Positions 10,412 to 19,246 of a stretch of DNA of 25,337 nt are shown piece after piece; position 1 is the first letter of the stretch, and every line of letters starts with the position of its first letter. A program made the position numbers and the translations under genes. Origin of the DNA: a virus (lineage: Duplodnaviria; Heunggongvirae; Uroviricota; Caudoviricetes). The notes under the pieces were generated by a model, which was not told the origin of the DNA, did no database searches, and saw nothing but the letters and a program-made list of their open reading frames with translations. Where the stretch lies: positions 1-25,337 of IMG/VR virus record IMGVR_UViG_2698536560_000009, one strand, 5' to 3'.

Positions 10412-12554
<2,143 letters not shown>

Positions 12555-14487: not shown

Positions 14488-16407
14488 TTAAAACCAGTTA
14501 CGATTATTAAGTGCTGAAAGTCCTTTTTTCTTAGGTTTTGATTTCTGCTTCTCTTTCTGTACTGGTTGTTGTTCTGCTTTAGTTTTTATGGATTCTTCTA
14601 CTTTAGTATTTAGTTCTTTTTGTTTAGCTCTATACTCTCGCAACTTCCTATACGGTTGTGCACCAAGTGCCTGTATCTTGTGATCAATCGCTGCTAATGA
14701 GTAGACGAGCGTATCGAGACATTCGTTACGCTCTCCATTTGGATTCTCCCATACCATCACTGAACCTTTTCGTACTAGTTTTTCTGCTGTAAGTTGGAGG
14801 AAGTAATCATCGACAAGGGAATGACTGAAGTGTATATTAGTACTATACTCTCCCCCTTCACATGCCTGTCGTAATAACTTCTTAACCTGGTGCTTCAGTA
14901 CTTGAGTATTAATATTAACCAGTTGATGTCCTGCCGTTGTGGAATCCTTCGTGATGGGACCAGTCTGTGTGTTTGCACCCTTAATTGCATGCCATCGTCC
15001 CCCACTGGAAGAACAAAAGCGATATATGGAACTGGTTGCAGATCCGTTTGAGCTATCAATAAAGGATCTCAGTACTGGTACTTTTCTACCTGAAGTGGTT
15101 TTAAATATACTCTTACTATAATTAAGTAGTTCAGTATATGCCTTATCTTCATACTTAGTACAATCGACACCATAAAACATACGGTGGTCCAGAACCCATA
15201 TATTCTTTTCATCAAATGCAATAGTACTACATTCTAAGCGGTCTATCTGTTGGTCACATGCCAGTACAATACCAAGTGCATTATCTGGAATATGTTTTAC
15301 ATCTAAATCAAAGTCGCGTAAGTTTTCCAGTACTGTAAGATCTTCTTTAATATTATTCTTATCTACCCACGGTAAACCGAGTACGTTATTATAGAAAGAT
15401 TGTTCTTCAAAGTTTATCCATGAGTTCTTAAAGTCTTCAACAATCTTCTCAATAGTAGTAATCGGTGAATATAGTCTATTAACATGGTATCCCCTGAAAC
15501 CCATCACATGCAGTCTGTGTGCTTTCCAGTAACCTTTTGCAACCATCCGTGCACGTTGCCCTTCAGTGATTACTTCATCACATCCTGGACAGTGTAGGCG
15601 TGCTGTAGTGGGTTCTGGTGCATTACGTCGTTCGTTGAACTTCACCCATTCAAACTTTATATTCTCCCATTCTAAAATATGGTCATGATCACAATGTGGA
15701 CACACGACATGAAAATGTCTCTGGTCTGAGAGTTCCCATTGCTGGCAGATCATATCGTCCTGTACTAATGGTGTGGAGGCCATCACGATCAGGGAGTTCT
15801 TACCAAACTGAGTTGCACGCTGTTCTATGAGTGATAGGGGGTTGCCCTCATCTTGTTCTGGATCTACACCTGATAATTCATCAATGAAGATTGCAGGAAC
15901 TGTAAGCGAGCGTAGGGACTGGCTAGAATTGAGGTTAACAAAGTATGTCTTAGTACCGTCAACGTTCTGTTGAGTGTGTAGATCGTTTACTGCATTCTTA
16001 TCTGATTTGTCAGTGATTAATGCTTGAAGGTTTGGACACGCATTAATAGTATCCATCCATTTACCAGTACGGAACTTTTTCACAGTACTACCACTACTAC
16101 CCGCAAATATCATATGGGAGGGTTTATTTGCCATCCTGTAAAGCATTGCATTTTGTAGTATTGTTGTCTTGAGTAATTGTGCACTACTCATTAAACAGAT
16201 CTTCTGTACTGATGGATCTACTGTGGCGTTTAGGGGTTCTACTTGAAATGAAAATAATTTAGTTTTTTGTTGTGCCAGTGGTCCATCTGGAAATACAGTA
16301 TATTGTTCACACCATTCAGATGGTTTAATCTTCGGTGGGGGTAATATTGATTTCAGACTCTGGTTCAGAATCTTCATCATCTTCTTCTGGCTGTTCTTCG
16401 TACTCAT
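14488..16407 (-). CDS. terminase large subunit (lambda gpA-like)
   Basis: 639 aa. Contains Cys/His clusters (CPHCDHDH, HCPGCDE) and an acidic IFIDELSG segment typical of gpA-family terminases. Follows a Nu1-like small subunit gene. Confidence 0.8.
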   Translation of the reverse strand: MSTKNSQKKMMKILNQSLKSILPPPKIKPSEWCEQYTVFPDGPLAQQKTKLFSFQVEPLNATVDPSVQKICLMSSAQLLKTTILQNAMLYRMANKPSHMIFAGSSGSTVKKFRTGKWMDTINACPNLQALITDKSDKNAVNDLHTQQNVDGTKTYFVNLNSSQSLRSLTVPAIFIDELSGVDPEQDEGNPLSLIEQRATQFGKNSLIVMASTPLVQDDMICQQWELSDQRHFHVVCPHCDHDHILEWENIKFEWVKFNERRNAPEPTTARLHCPGCDEVITEGQRARMVAKGYWKAHRLHVMGFRGYHVNRLYSPITTIEKIVEDFKNSWINFEEQSFYNNVLGLPWVDKNNIKEDLTVLENLRDFDLDVKHIPDNALGIVLACDQQIDRLECSTIAFDEKNIWVLDHRMFYGVDCTKYEDKAYTELLNYSKSIFKTTSGRKVPVLRSFIDSSNGSATSSIYRFCSSSGGRWHAIKGANTQTGPITKDSTTAGHQLVNINTQVLKHQVKKLLRQACEGGEYSTNIHFSHSLVDDYFLQLTAEKLVRKGSVMVWENPNGERNECLDTLVYSLAAIDHKIQALGAQPYRKLREYRAKQKELNTKVEESIKTKAEQQPVQKEKQKSKPKKKGLSALNNRNWF

Positions 16408-16846
16408 ATGATCCTAATTCCCTTAGTTTCTCATCAATCCTTTCTTCTAGTTTTATCCGCAATGTATCCGCATCTTCACTTTCAAATAGTTCTACATAGA
16501 TAGATGCCGGAATACTTCTTAGTACTCCGCGTAGTGCTGCAAAATAACCAGTTAGTGTTTGAGTTACATAATCAGTACTCAATACCTTTTCAGTACTGAT
16601 ATTTAATTCAATCTCAACTAAATCTGCTTCAAGTGATATCTTGCGTAATTTCTCTTTTTCAATCTGTTCTTTTACATCAGTATTTCGCAATGGTTGGATA
16701 ATATTAATTAGTATCCATTGATCTATTTCTTTTTTACTTGCTTTCTTTGGGTGTGGCATTCCACGTTTTGCCCATTCACGGCTTACAGTACTGTCATTAA
16801 CTCCCATACGTTCTGCAATTTCGTTTGTTGTATATCTATCGTTCAA
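16325..16846 (-). CDS. terminase small subunit (lambda Nu1-like, N-terminal HTH)
   Basis: The N-terminal TNEIAERMGVNDSTVSREWAKRGMP resembles the Nu1 winged-HTH (…IRTIQNWQEQGMP), and the C-terminus is acidic. The start codon at 16844-16846 is TTG; the first in-frame ATG would truncate the HTH. Confidence 0.6.
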   Translation of the reverse strand: MNDRYTTNEIAERMGVNDSTVSREWAKRGMPHPKKASKKEIDQWILINIIQPLRNTDVKEQIEKEKLRKISLEADLVEIELNISTEKVLSTDYVTQTLTGYFAALRGVLRSIPASIYVELFESEDADTLRIKLEERIDEKLRELGSYEYEEQPEEDDEDSEPESEINITPTED

Positions 16847-16904
16847 TTTGTTTATCCAGGTTTTGTTTGTGTTATTTAAAATATTTAATATGCAAAAAAA
16901 ATAG

Positions 16905-16915
16905 TTCGCGGCGAA
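16905..16915. other. GC-rich near-palindrome TTCGC-G-GCGAA, candidate cosN-like site
   Basis: An isolated GC-rich symmetric element in the AT-rich region about 60 bp upstream of the Nu1-like terminase start. It resembles the GGCGGCGA core of lambda cosN. A 7-bp inverted repeat acttccc/gggaagt lies at 16915-16921 and 16940-16946. Confidence 0.25.
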
Positions 16916-16952
16916 ACTTCCCGATTGTGTCTATTCAGAGGGAAGTACCTAT

Positions 16953-16981
16953 AGTATTTATTAACCCTACCATGTTATACT
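16953..16981 (+). promoter_or_regulatory. candidate sigma70-type promoter with extended -10 (TGtTATACT) for the SLATT-NTase operon
   Basis: TG at 16973-16974 and TATACT at 16976-16981, about 30 nt upstream of the ATG at 17011. The -35 is weak. Confidence 0.3.
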
Positions 16982-17010
16982 GTTAGGGAATCGGATTTGT
17001 TGGAGTGTTT

Positions 17011-17514
17011 ATGAATCAGAAGCTCATCCAAACAGTCATTTCTGAGTGTCATCGTATAGAAGAGGACGCTCTTTACTCTTCTAAATCTCATTATAATGTT
17101 TCTGATAGATGGGATAAGCTGAATCTGTGGTTCGGTGTACCATTAGCAATCTTAACCGCTTTGAGTGGTATTGCCGCAATCAAGAGTACAGCCAATGCTG
17201 TTGTAGCTATTTCCATAACTGCTACAATTCTAACTGCATTAAATACGTCTCTTAACCCAAGTAAGCGTGCTGCACTTCATAAATCAGCAGCAAATGAATA
17301 TAATAAATTAAAGAATGAAGTTAGAATATTTAGGGAAATATTGACTTCTAATTTTGATTTTACTGATAAAACTTTGATTGAAAAACTTACGAGTTACTCT
17401 GATCGACGCAATCAACTTAATTCAAGTTCGCCAAATATTCCTCGGTGGGCTTATGAGAAAACTCAAAGAGATGTTAACCAAGGCTTTACTAAGTATAATA
17501 TTGACAAGGAATAA
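17011..17514 (+). CDS. SLATT-like two-transmembrane effector protein
   Basis: 167 aa from the ATG at 17011 (GGAG 6 nt upstream; the ORF track begins at a GTG at 17005). Two adjacent hydrophobic helices (LWFGVPLAILTALSGIAAI and AVVAISITATILTALNTSL) are flanked by short soluble regions. The stop lies 2 nt before the NTase start. The family call rests on architecture and on the SMODS neighbour. Confidence 0.45.
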   Translation: MNQKLIQTVISECHRIEEDALYSSKSHYNVSDRWDKLNLWFGVPLAILTALSGIAAIKSTANAVVAISITATILTALNTSLNPSKRAALHKSAANEYNKLKNEVRIFREILTSNFDFTDKTLIEKLTSYSDRRNQLNSSSPNIPRWAYEKTQRDVNQGFTKYNIDKE

Positions 17515-17516
17515 AC

Positions 17517-18293
17517 ATGACAGTCAGTACCTATCTTGAGTCTATTAAAAGCAATGCTTATCAAAGAGATATTACAATAACGAATTCAATTGCAACCATA
17601 AAAAACAGACTGAATGGTTATTTTGCTGGTGAACTTGTTAGTCATTTTGTATTTGGCTCATATTCACGTAATACAATGCTTCCTCGTAGCTATGATCCTT
17701 CTTCTGATGTTGATTATATGGTTGTATTCAAAAATGTAATATATCAGCCTCAGACCTACCTAAACAAGCTAAGGGGTTTTGTAAATTATTACTATCGTAC
17801 ATCTGAAATAAAGCAAAGCCACCCTACTATTCAATTGAACCTTAATCATATTACTTTCGAGCTTGTCCCTGCATCTCATAATATTTTATTTGGTTATCAA
17901 ATCCCTTCCAACCAGGATTTTTTGAACCGTTGGATGAATACCGATCCCAATGCGTTCAATACTGATTTAACTAATTGCAATAAAAATAATAACAATTTAA
18001 TTAAGCCTCTTATTCGCATAATGAAATATTGGAATGCCAATGCAGGTTATGTCTTTGAGTCGTATCAACTTGAAAAAGATATTGTTAGCTTTAACTATTT
18101 TTGGTGCTCTACCCTTAAAGAATATTTTTACTCTGCTGTAGAACAACTTTCAGGTTCCTATTATCTCGCACAATGGAAAAAAGATAAGATTCAGCGTCTA
18201 AAAAATTCAGTTATGATGTCAAAATATTATGAGCAGTTAAACAATCATTTTGCCGCCGAAAATGAAATAAAGAAAATTTTACCCATAAAATAA
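17517..18293 (+). CDS. SMODS / CD-NTase-like nucleotidyltransferase (Pol-beta superfamily)
   Basis: 258 aa. Carries the GS-x15-DVD signature (FGSYSRNTMLPRSYDPSSDVDYMVVF), a downstream acidic ITFELV, and a LIRIMKYW motif like the OAS/cGAS-type helix. AAGGA Shine-Dalgarno 8 nt upstream. Confidence 0.6.
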   Translation: MTVSTYLESIKSNAYQRDITITNSIATIKNRLNGYFAGELVSHFVFGSYSRNTMLPRSYDPSSDVDYMVVFKNVIYQPQTYLNKLRGFVNYYYRTSEIKQSHPTIQLNLNHITFELVPASHNILFGYQIPSNQDFLNRWMNTDPNAFNTDLTNCNKNNNNLIKPLIRIMKYWNANAGYVFESYQLEKDIVSFNYFWCSTLKEYFYSAVEQLSGSYYLAQWKKDKIQRLKNSVMMSKYYEQLNNHFAAENEIKKILPIK

Positions 18294-18298
18294 TCTTG

Positions 18299-18326
18299 CC
18301 CCCTTATATTACTAATTATAAGGGGG
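18299..18326. terminator. perfect 10-bp stem hairpin immediately after the NTase gene
   Basis: cccccttata - ttactaat - tataaggggg, starting 6 nt after the stop at 18291-18293. A U-rich tract follows on the minus-strand side, so it may act bidirectionally. Confidence 0.4.
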
Positions 18327-18540
18327 TACAGCTCATTGTCTTTGCTTGAATCCAAAAAATCATTCTCGATATTTTTACTTGTAAGAATTGAGTACAGTTG
18401 AAACATTCCACCGTCGTACAGCTAAATGAGATTGCTAAGATTGTATGACCCGCTCCTCTACCATCAGTATCAGGAGATTACATTCCCTTATCGCTAAAGA
18501 TAGCAGTTTTGTGAGAAGAGATAGTTTCCAATTTCTAATT

Positions 18541-18567
18541 TATAAGCCAGTTAGTTGCTGGCTTATA
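18541..18567 (-). terminator. hairpin 4 nt downstream of the tail-anchored protein gene
   Basis: tataagccag - ttagttg - ctggcttata, a 10-bp stem. There is no clear U-run. Confidence 0.3.
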
Positions 18568-18571
18568 ATCA

Positions 18572-19246
18572 TCATGATTTAACAGATACTAATGCCAGAA
18601 TAGATGCTACTGCGGCAGCCAACGAAACTATAAGACTTAATGTAGGTATATATAATGCTGTAACTCTTCTAAACTTGTTCTCTTTGTCGTTATACTGAAT
18701 AAAAAACATCTTAATTTTCAGTAAGCGGATTAAAATTAAATCTTTTAATGCGGCCTTGTGTAAAACACCTGTAACACGGTGATAATGAAGTAAATTCTTT
18801 ACTGCTTTCTCTATTTTTTTTGGTGTTATGTGTTTAACGTTATATGAATGATGGACAATCAAGGAATCATGTGTTGCTAATGAATCATCTGAAGTAGACG
18901 GAAAAAGAATTATATGCACAGCCCCCGTCGCACTATATGTAATTGAAAGTGCGGCTCCTTTTTGCCAATGATGATTAAACTTTATGCTTTCGGTAGTTTT
19001 TTCCTGCCGCATATTTCCAGTCATACGATCAGCGATCTGAAATGTCAGGCAATCAAAACCATAACCATCTGGTTCATCTTGCATATCAATTATATTAAAT
19101 CTTATATGCTCTCCTGATAATTGGGTTGATAGTATTTCTAATTGCTTTTTTATTTTAGGTTTGAATATAATCCAGTTTACATTAGAAATTAATCTTCTAA
19201 GTTCGTCTCTTTCAAACTTTGCTCTAAGCTCTTTCTTCCACTCCAT
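18572..19246 (-). CDS. hypothetical tail-anchored membrane protein
   Basis: 224 aa with a GGAG Shine-Dalgarno and ATG at 19244-19246. A soluble His-rich domain is followed by a single C-terminal transmembrane helix (LYIPTLSLIVSLAAAVASILALVSV). Sits alone on the minus strand between hairpins. Confidence 0.5.
   Translation of the reverse strand: MEWKKELRAKFERDELRRLISNVNWIIFKPKIKKQLEILSTQLSGEHIRFNIIDMQDEPDGYGFDCLTFQIADRMTGNMRQEKTTESIKFNHHWQKGAALSITYSATGAVHIILFPSTSDDSLATHDSLIVHHSYNVKHITPKKIEKAVKNLLHYHRVTGVLHKAALKDLILIRLLKIKMFFIQYNDKENKFRRVTALYIPTLSLIVSLAAAVASILALVSVKS

Follow-up and report, generated by a model that had tools for sequence, protein, structure and literature searches.

The window analysed here is a stretch of 25,337 nucleotides from a virus of the class Caudoviricetes (IMG/VR record IMGVR_UViG_2698536560_000009, positions 1 to 25,337), which belongs to a prophage of E. 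coli. A composite element at approximately 16860-16951, directly upstream of the genes for the small (terS) and large (terL) terminase subunits, is probably the cohesive-end (cos) site of this prophage, and the virion ends would be located there; comparison of related sequences led us to give this reading a probability of about 0.7. The assignment follows from the position of the element, the enzyme family of the terminase, the conservation of the element with fixed geometry throughout the family and its location at the boundary of variable cargo genes. The site is of an ordinary kind, in a family that has never been grown in the laboratory.

A composite element conserved throughout the family

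Comparative analysis was performed on 19 distinct versions of the element, from relatives with TerL proteins 42-87% identical, and pairwise identities were calculated from ten independent contexts. Relatives comprised near metagenome contigs (L002-L004, TerS 81-84% identical), a second E. coli lineage (L005, L006 and L011-L014; TerS 31%, TerL 42-47% identical), a set of Klebsiella, Citrobacter, E. coli and Salmonella prophages and metagenome contigs (L023-L034, TerL 46-60% identical) and proviruses from IMG/VR (L156-L181). Across the 19 distinct relatives, the element on the terS strand reads AGGT(A/T)C(T/C)CC, about 17-19 variable nt, then (C/G)G(A)GTTT(Y)CGCCGCG(A)(A). The downstream motif can be summarised as (G)AGTTT(Y)CGCCGCGA and is followed, in most relatives, by an AT-rich stretch and AACAAACAA. 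GGT.C and CG.CGC were invariant or nearly so, GGT.C being present in 19/19 distinct relatives, and the spacing from GGT to CG was 31-33 nt. The element always lies on the terS strand, 60-170 nt upstream of the called terS start, and its core occurs once per locus, including the 42-kb locus L001; the site was also found in one place in each of 88 E. coli genomes. Mean pairwise identity was 0.34 in the 30-nt left flank, 0.78 in the upstream motif, 0.31 in the spacer, 0.74 in the AGTTT block and 0.82 in the GC core.

In the window, all parts of the element are read on the minus strand. The upstream motif, T-AGGTACTTCC (16941-16951), is a cosQ-like candidate with unrelated DNA on both sides among relatives. 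It is followed by a variable spacer (16922-16940), the length of which is held to within 1 nt and which contains the 17-nt loop of an inverted repeat discussed below plus a single base from each of its arms; among the near-clonal E. coli copies, the sole substitution in the whole element is a G/T difference in this spacer. The GC-rich core, GGAAGTTTCGCCGCGAA (16905-16921), includes the dyad TTCGC-G-GCGAA and is the cosN candidate, its nicking region lying most likely around AGTTTCGCCGCG (16907-16918). Core variation among relatives was observed mainly at positions 8, 9 and 12 (the A of AGTTT being position 1), as in CGTCGCA, CGCAGC and CGCCGCT. Next comes an AT-rich segment (16874-16904), candidate equivalent of the I2 segment of lambda, with a T8 tract, seen as A8 at 16894-16901 on the plus strand. 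In the window, L002, L003, L023 and the L005 group, a run of seven to eight T starts between +14 and +19, counted from the A of AGTTT; this run is absent from L025, L026 and L028, which have CGTGGGATTTT in common. The last part, the AACACAAACAAAAC block (16860-16873), is conserved in most relatives and is a candidate cosB element at the position of lambda R3; AACAAACAA(AAC) was found at about +47 to +60 from the same A in most relatives, at another distance in L023, and was absent from L029.

The core survives between lineages whose TerS are 31% and TerL 42-47% identical, while terS-proximal DNA diverges along with TerS. Scanning IMG/VR with the bipartite motif returned 26 matches. A TerL homologue began about 650 nt beyond the motif in all 13 low-GC matches whose downstream sequence was long enough; the other 13, lacking such a homologue, comprised eleven high-GC and two ~40%-GC chance matches, with L162 a truncated family member. 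A scan of IMG/VR with the 14-mer core gave chance matches only, the single one with an upstream motif being a high-GC coincidence.

Terminase genes and position of the element

The initial annotation of this region expected a cos site beside a gpA-type terminase, and the enzyme assignment was borne out. The large subunit gene terL (14488-16407, minus strand) encodes an ATPase domain (PF05876, GpA_ATPase, 3e-52) and a nuclease domain (PF20454, GpA_nuclease, 1e-45), and its product, presumably the nicking enzyme, aligned from end to end with lambda gpA (24% identity, E 2e-30). The presumed recognition subunit is encoded by terS (16325-16846, minus strand, TTG start). Its description as Nu1-like was a weaker claim: the protein matched phrog_57 (8e-20) and showed 26% identity to Nu1 over the N-terminal 61 amino acids only, with marginal similarity in the winged helix-turn-helix, and no Nu1 match was obtained in the Pfam search.

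To the left of the site in window coordinates, the minus strand carries terS, terL, a head-tail joining gene, a lambda-family portal gene and a protease-capsid fusion. The order terS-terL-adaptor-portal is that of lambda, with the site directly upstream. The site is contained in a divergent intergenic region of 158-164 bp between terS and a SLATT gene (17011-17514, plus strand), and 64 nt separate the dyad centre from the TTG start of terS.

The element as a border between packaging genes and cargo

Three members of the second E. coli lineage (L005, L011 and L013) shared about 97.6% identity over a stretch that runs from 7-8 nt ahead of CGCCGCG through terL, but were unrelated upstream (left) of this stretch. 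Each of these unrelated left segments nevertheless contained AGGTTC exactly 32 nt from the core. Cargo found left of the element included a cyclic oligonucleotide-based antiphage signalling system (CBASS) in the window and L005, an EAL protein in Klebsiella, an HNH gene with small open reading frames (ORFs) in Citrobacter, an OLD-family nuclease in another E. coli lineage, a DuOB/DUF488/mSLOG set and LprI. In the window, the cargo (17011-18293, plus strand) is a two-gene CBASS, composed of the SLATT/2TM effector and a SMODS cyclase (17517-18293), with PADLOC values of 2.3e-70 and 3.5e-113, respectively. Cargo genes of L011 and L013 are co-oriented with terS. Since left-side cargo differs among relatives, the element moves with the terminase genes and not with CBASS. 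As judged from these alignments, it lies at the edge of a cargo or defence hotspot, at the border of conserved packaging genes and variable cargo. Such a sharp mosaic border with a cargo hotspot on its left resembles a chromosome end. The junction was less clean in L026, L168 and L174 than in L005, L011 and L013.

A cos site located beyond the CBASS genes (18294-18571) was also considered and was rejected: in relatives lacking CBASS, the element was the sole upstream DNA in common with the L005 lineage.

The dyad and the inverted repeat

A candidate cos site had been proposed in the initial annotation at 16905-16946, on account of a GC-rich dyad, a neighbouring inverted repeat and a likeness to lambda cosN. 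These features do exist. The dyad TTCGC-G-GCGAA (16905-16915) is a perfect 5+1+5 palindrome, better than the "near-perfect" one announced, and the 7-bp inverted repeat is equally perfect (ACTTCCC, 16916-16922; GGGAAGT, 16940-16946; 17 nt between arms). As had been noticed, the region has no other GC-rich element of this kind: CGCGGCG (16907-16913) is the sole pure G/C run of at least 7 nt in the terS-SLATT intergenic region, and one of seven in the 25-kb window, against 17 +/- 4 in shuffled sequences. However, the window contains 30 perfect 5-1-5 palindromes (32.8 +/- 6.9 in shuffles) and 78 inverted repeats of 7 bp with loops of 3-20 nt (40 +/- 7 in shuffles), so that the dyad and the inverted repeat are individually unremarkable.

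Comparison among relatives was consistent with this. About half of the 10 distinct contexts had a perfect dyad, the others having degraded versions (GCGAT, GCTCA, GCACT, GCCCG). The dyad was perfect in the window, L002, L026 and L029, and matched at 4/5 positions in L025 and L028, and at 3/5 or fewer in L003, L005, L023 and L032. Its left half (AGTTTYCGC) was far better kept than its right half. The 7-bp inverted repeat was specific to the window lineage, complementarity elsewhere being reduced to 3-5 bp (e.g. ACTCC/GGAGT in L026). One arm (ACTTCCC) coincides with the end of the upstream motif, the other (GGGAAGT) with the beginning of the AGTTT block; they are thus kept as pieces of two motifs, and pairing is not what is conserved. 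From these alignments, neither the dyad nor the inverted repeat is the conserved feature of the site.

The likeness to lambda cosN came down to one 7-mer, GCGGCGA, which is truly common to both, but lies here on the strand antisense to terS, in the orientation opposite to that of lambda; we estimate that sharing of this 7-mer would occur by chance in about 1 in 10 such regions. The proposal of a cos site at this position is supported by the comparative evidence, whereas the dyad, the repeat and the lambda likeness originally given as reasons mostly carry little weight. Likewise, the proposed interval does contain the GC core but is too short, the functional unit extending over about 16860-16951.

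Comparison with lambda and other packaging systems

The ends of lambda, as read from NC_001416, are ...TTTACGGGTCCTTTCCGGTGATCCGACAGGTTACG / GGGCGGCGACCT / CGCGGGTTTTCGCTATTTATGAAAATTTT..., with the Nu1 start at bp 191. Lambda cosQ, which we take to be GGGTCCT at 48473-48479, has its T 26 nt ahead of the left nick; here, 25-28 nt separate the T of GGT from the A of AGTTT. Several features are alike in both systems: a gpA-family TerL of the same length, the gene order, a site upstream of terS on the terS strand, a GC-rich and partly symmetric core, a short upstream motif with GGT.C, a T-run near +18/19 and a conserved block near +50. The I2 segment of lambda (bp 18-50) is AT-rich and contains poly-dT and poly-dA tracts (PMC4856287); its TTTT is at +19, and our element has a T tract from +18 onwards in the window and from +19 in the L005 group. 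In lambda and N15, R3 is located at about bp 48-65, the single critical site of N15 being 48-59 (PMC4669245), and the AACAAACAA block occupies this R3 position. The cohesive end of N15 differs from that of lambda at positions 9 and 12, and that of gifsy-1 at 8, 9 and 11 (PMC4669245); variation of the present core at 8, 9 and 12 parallels these positions. Furthermore, lambda and phage 21 have cosQ and cosN in common and differ in cosB and TerS (PMC4669245), a pattern mirrored here by a core that persists while TerS and terS-proximal DNA diverge. These parallels are of layout and not of homology, and the phage does not qualify as "lambda-like" in the narrow sense of 12-nt 5' ends near GGGCGGCGACCT (PMC4669245).

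A compact cosB whose one conserved block lies some 48-60 bp in from the predicted left end, as proposed for the window, would resemble that of N15 (PMC4669245). However, N15 has lambda-type cosQ and cosN and a TerL 65% identical to that of lambda, whereas the sequences are unrelated here and the block is common to very different TerS.

P2-like phages have defence hotspots adjoining cos. Variable anti-phage cargo is similarly found beside the predicted cos in our family (CBASS in the window; OLD-family nuclease and DuOB/DUF488/mSLOG in relatives). The cos layout of cos-type phage-inducible chromosomal islands (PICIs), which are satellites, has also been described (PMC9026076). Both systems differ from ours in phage family, terminase gene order and cos sequence. 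Among E. coli genomes, no satellite with this site was found, the site being single-copy and always with the prophage. A likeness to HK97-type cos sites can be seen in L005, L025 and L032, which have an HNH endonuclease gene slightly upstream of terS. An HNH-assisted cos of HK97 style was nevertheless rejected for the window, where no HNH gene occurs at this place, where a nearby 224-aa ORF is not an HNH gene, and where TerL has its own nuclease domain.

Predicted function and arguments against it

A gpA-family terminase would start and finish the packaging of one genome length at cos. From the layout described above, we infer cleavage at the site, along with where the nicks fall, the polarity of the overhangs and what each block does. 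In this scheme, AGGTACTTCC (16941-16950) would act as a cosQ-like element assisting termination, and would be separated by a spacer of about 20 bp, with no particular sequence needed, from the cosN-like nicking region (G)AAGTTTCGCCGCGAA (16905-16921). The AT-rich T8 segment would be I2-like, bendable or meltable, and the AACACAAACAAAAC block, which lies some 50 bp in from the left end as predicted, would be cosB-like, TerS or a host bending protein anchoring TerL there. Through staggered nicks in or beside the GC core, TerL would generate cohesive ends that are short and GC-rich, probably with 5' overhanging strands some 10-13 nt long. In this layout, terS would open the virion chromosome and the CBASS cargo would close it, the predicted linear form beginning with AGTTTCGCC... 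and ending with ...AGGTACTTCC plus about 20 nt. The lambda rule, in which CG flanks each nick, did not yield exact nick positions, CG positions being inconsistent across relatives.

A number of observations weigh against this assignment. The best TerL match in 50,697 phage records was 34% identical; no cultured phage has a closer TerL. Scans of IMG/VR with exact flank patterns and with the core yielded no virome contig that was of the same type as the window, and no fetched contig ends at the site, including metagenome contigs of 30-37 kb. Proviruses L164 and L166 begin 58 nt before the motif, but these starts were judged to be provirus-prediction trimming at a gene boundary and not physical ends. 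The AACAAACAA block is conserved across very different TerS, which is unexpected for a specificity-determining TerS site. Neither three-fold nor otherwise repeated R sites were evident at the site, where no obvious IHF site was found either. The core is not homologous to the lambda end GGGCGGCGACCT, with which it has in common only the inverted 7-mer mentioned above, and it is separated from terS by about 60-75 bp, versus 190 bp in lambda. TerL genes of the L005 lineage carry shared frameshifts, so that conservation in this lineage may partly reflect recent common descent. Finally, a mosaic junction at a conserved motif could arise by recombination in the sole shared homology and is for this reason not specific to end joining.

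Alternative explanations

The element could be a cis-regulatory site for late transcription of packaging and head genes, recognised by a phage-encoded activator, sigma factor or antiterminator. The window has terS as the gene next to a divergent region, where it comes first and would need a promoter, unless it is read through antisense to CBASS; two motifs at fixed spacing could moreover be half-sites, ACTCC and GGAGT being partly complementary, and CTATAGG, present in the window and L005, loosely recalls the core of T7-type promoters. We nevertheless consider this explanation unlikely. A scan for promoters (-35/-10 hexamers with 16-18 bp spacing) revealed no sigma-70-like site at the element, no -10-like element was conserved at any fixed position, and the 20-bp spacer that could hold one is unconserved. 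In L011, L013, L025 and L028, genes upstream are co-oriented with terS, which thus needs no promoter of its own, and the element is still kept. The T7-type promoter was rejected, as CTATAGG is replaced by CGTTAGG, CTTTAGG or AAAAAGG in other relatives and no gene for a large single-subunit RNA polymerase was apparent in the ~35-kb prophage. Another explanation retains packaging but dispenses with unique cohesive ends, the site serving as a pac-type headful start or as a terminal-repeat cut. Position beside terS and family-wide conservation would suit any packaging signal. This is very unlikely in our opinion: TerL is a full-length gpA-family enzyme, and to our knowledge the characterised members of this family (lambda, N15, P2) make 5' cohesive ends. 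Besides, pac sites are usually inside terS and not upstream of it. A bipartite element with a fixed upstream motif suits a site recognised again at termination, following the logic of cosQ (PMC4669245), while headful packaging needs none.

Three further explanations do without packaging. The abutting of unrelated cargo on the element, with breakpoints at the core or the upstream motif, might designate a recombination or insertion boundary, a "linker" kept for cargo swapping. This seems highly improbable, because the core occurs once per locus, so that cargo is not flanked by a second copy, no recombinase is encoded in the cargo, and the upstream motif is kept within each unrelated left segment at exact spacing, which argues for a function needing both motifs in cis and not for a mere patch of homology. 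An intrinsic terminator, insulator or attenuator on the terS strand is hardly credible, even though T8 comes 3 nt behind the GC dyad in the window, L023 and the L005 group, and A-to-G changes in L002 and L003 preserve G.U pairing of the 7-bp stem on this strand. A dyad with a 1-nt centre cannot make a proper hairpin loop, the terminator scan detected nothing at the site, and minimum free energy folds put no stem beside the U-run (z-scores against shuffles of +1.27 for L005, +0.22 for L002 and -0.73 for L003). Moreover, the T-run is missing in L025, L026, L028 and others while the core is kept, and what is conserved is sequence, not complementarity. In the surrounding region (16500-17300), known structured RNAs were rejected, Rfam 15 giving no match at E-values up to 1. 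As for functionless chance features, the frequencies of the dyad and the inverted repeat in the window are about those expected at random, but conservation of the core and upstream motif family-wide, at fixed spacing amid unrelated DNA, effectively refutes this last explanation.

The prophage, its relatives and neighbouring genes

The prophage is about 35 kb long, with a GC content of 35-37%, far below that of E. coli. It was present in 88 of 5426 complete E. coli genomes (~1.6%), at 99.7% identity or more, once in each and always in the chromosome. Carrier strains were from humans, poultry, cattle, dogs and water. In strain N61 (L001, L022; 792.6-829 kb), some 36 kb of sequence between yggS and yggR belong to it, and a gene for a large serine recombinase lies at one end. 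This layout makes the putative cos site internal to the integrated prophage, as expected of cos and not of an attachment site; attP was rejected on the same ground. Insertion sequences (ISs) were observed in single strains, namely IS3 in a tail gene of N61, IS1 in terS/terL of AR_0114 and ISVsa5 in EC21Z-048 (L001 8736-9898; L018 772-1469), and some copies of the prophage are thus inactivated. Strains with an intact copy include E. coli 55989 (NC_011748) and APEC E19035.

Comparison of the region at the DNA level gave no match among cultured phages or plasmids. Scans with TerL as the single query protein, run on both GTDB genomes and IMG/VR, yielded nothing confirmed, nor did a scan of GTDB with a TerS alignment, and literature searches retrieved no description of this prophage or its ends. 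Relatives with a TerL 39-60% identical were common across Enterobacterales, and the window prophage belongs to a large, uncultured family of Enterobacterales prophages with lambda-gpA-type terminases. In one relative (L036, TerL 39% identical), the motif pair is absent and four direct repeats of GCTATCTAGAGTAAC lie upstream of terL (L036 1-300); they are possibly a different packaging or TerS-binding array.

The terL reading frame is broken at positions equivalent to residues 343/344 and 378/379 of the window TerL in L005 (5379-7337), L011 (3392-5292) and L013 (3392-5310). Frameshifts at the same two points were found in independent genomes and metagenome contigs, and could correspond either to a defective lineage or to recoding. 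The TTG start of terS (16844-16846, minus strand) was apparent in all relatives of the window lineage; GGAG is located 8 nt upstream of it in L002-L004, and the window has only GGAT.

A probable promoter for CBASS was noticed at 16965-16988 (plus strand), consisting of an extended -10 sequence, TGtTATACT (16973-16981), bracketed by the inverted repeat CCCTA/TAGGG. L003 and L005 retain its equivalent, TGnTAT(G/A)(C/T)T, likewise 21 nt from CTATAG. This candidate was missed by the consensus scan because it has no good -35.

Among neighbouring genes, a 613-aa ORF (10713-12554, minus strand), which shares about 77 nt with the portal gene, unites a head-maturation protease, a scaffold-like region and a major capsid region in one frame (phrog_617, 2e-76; phrog_80, 6e-08). 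The 224-aa ORF (18572-19246, minus strand) encodes a protein with a hydrophobic C-terminal segment, 95% identical in L002, for which Pfam, PHROGs and PADLOC gave no family match. It occupies the slot of the HNH endonuclease gene of the L005 lineage and is unrelated to it.

Significance of the predicted cos site

If correct, the cos assignment would fix the ends and orientation of the virion chromosome, for this prophage as well as for its relatives in Klebsiella, Salmonella, Citrobacter and other genera. It would also account for the location of CBASS and other defence cargo, which would lie at the right end of the chromosome. The chief added value is that the motif pair locates both the packaging module and the cargo hotspot in genomes and metagenomes. 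The site may further provide a cis element for cosmid-type packaging or transduction assays in a family without cultured member, as well as a second, sequence-independent system for the study of how a cosQ-like element aids a gpA-type terminase in termination.

More tentatively, the family may use a complete lambda-style packaging grammar written in unrelated sequence, in which the chromosome end is where defence cargo is swapped, possibly through cohesive-end joining between co-resident phages. Were this doubtful reading true, cosQ-dependent termination would be general to gpA-type terminases and not a speciality of the lambda group, and the motif pair would constitute a one-line predictor of genome ends and cargo hotspots in this family.

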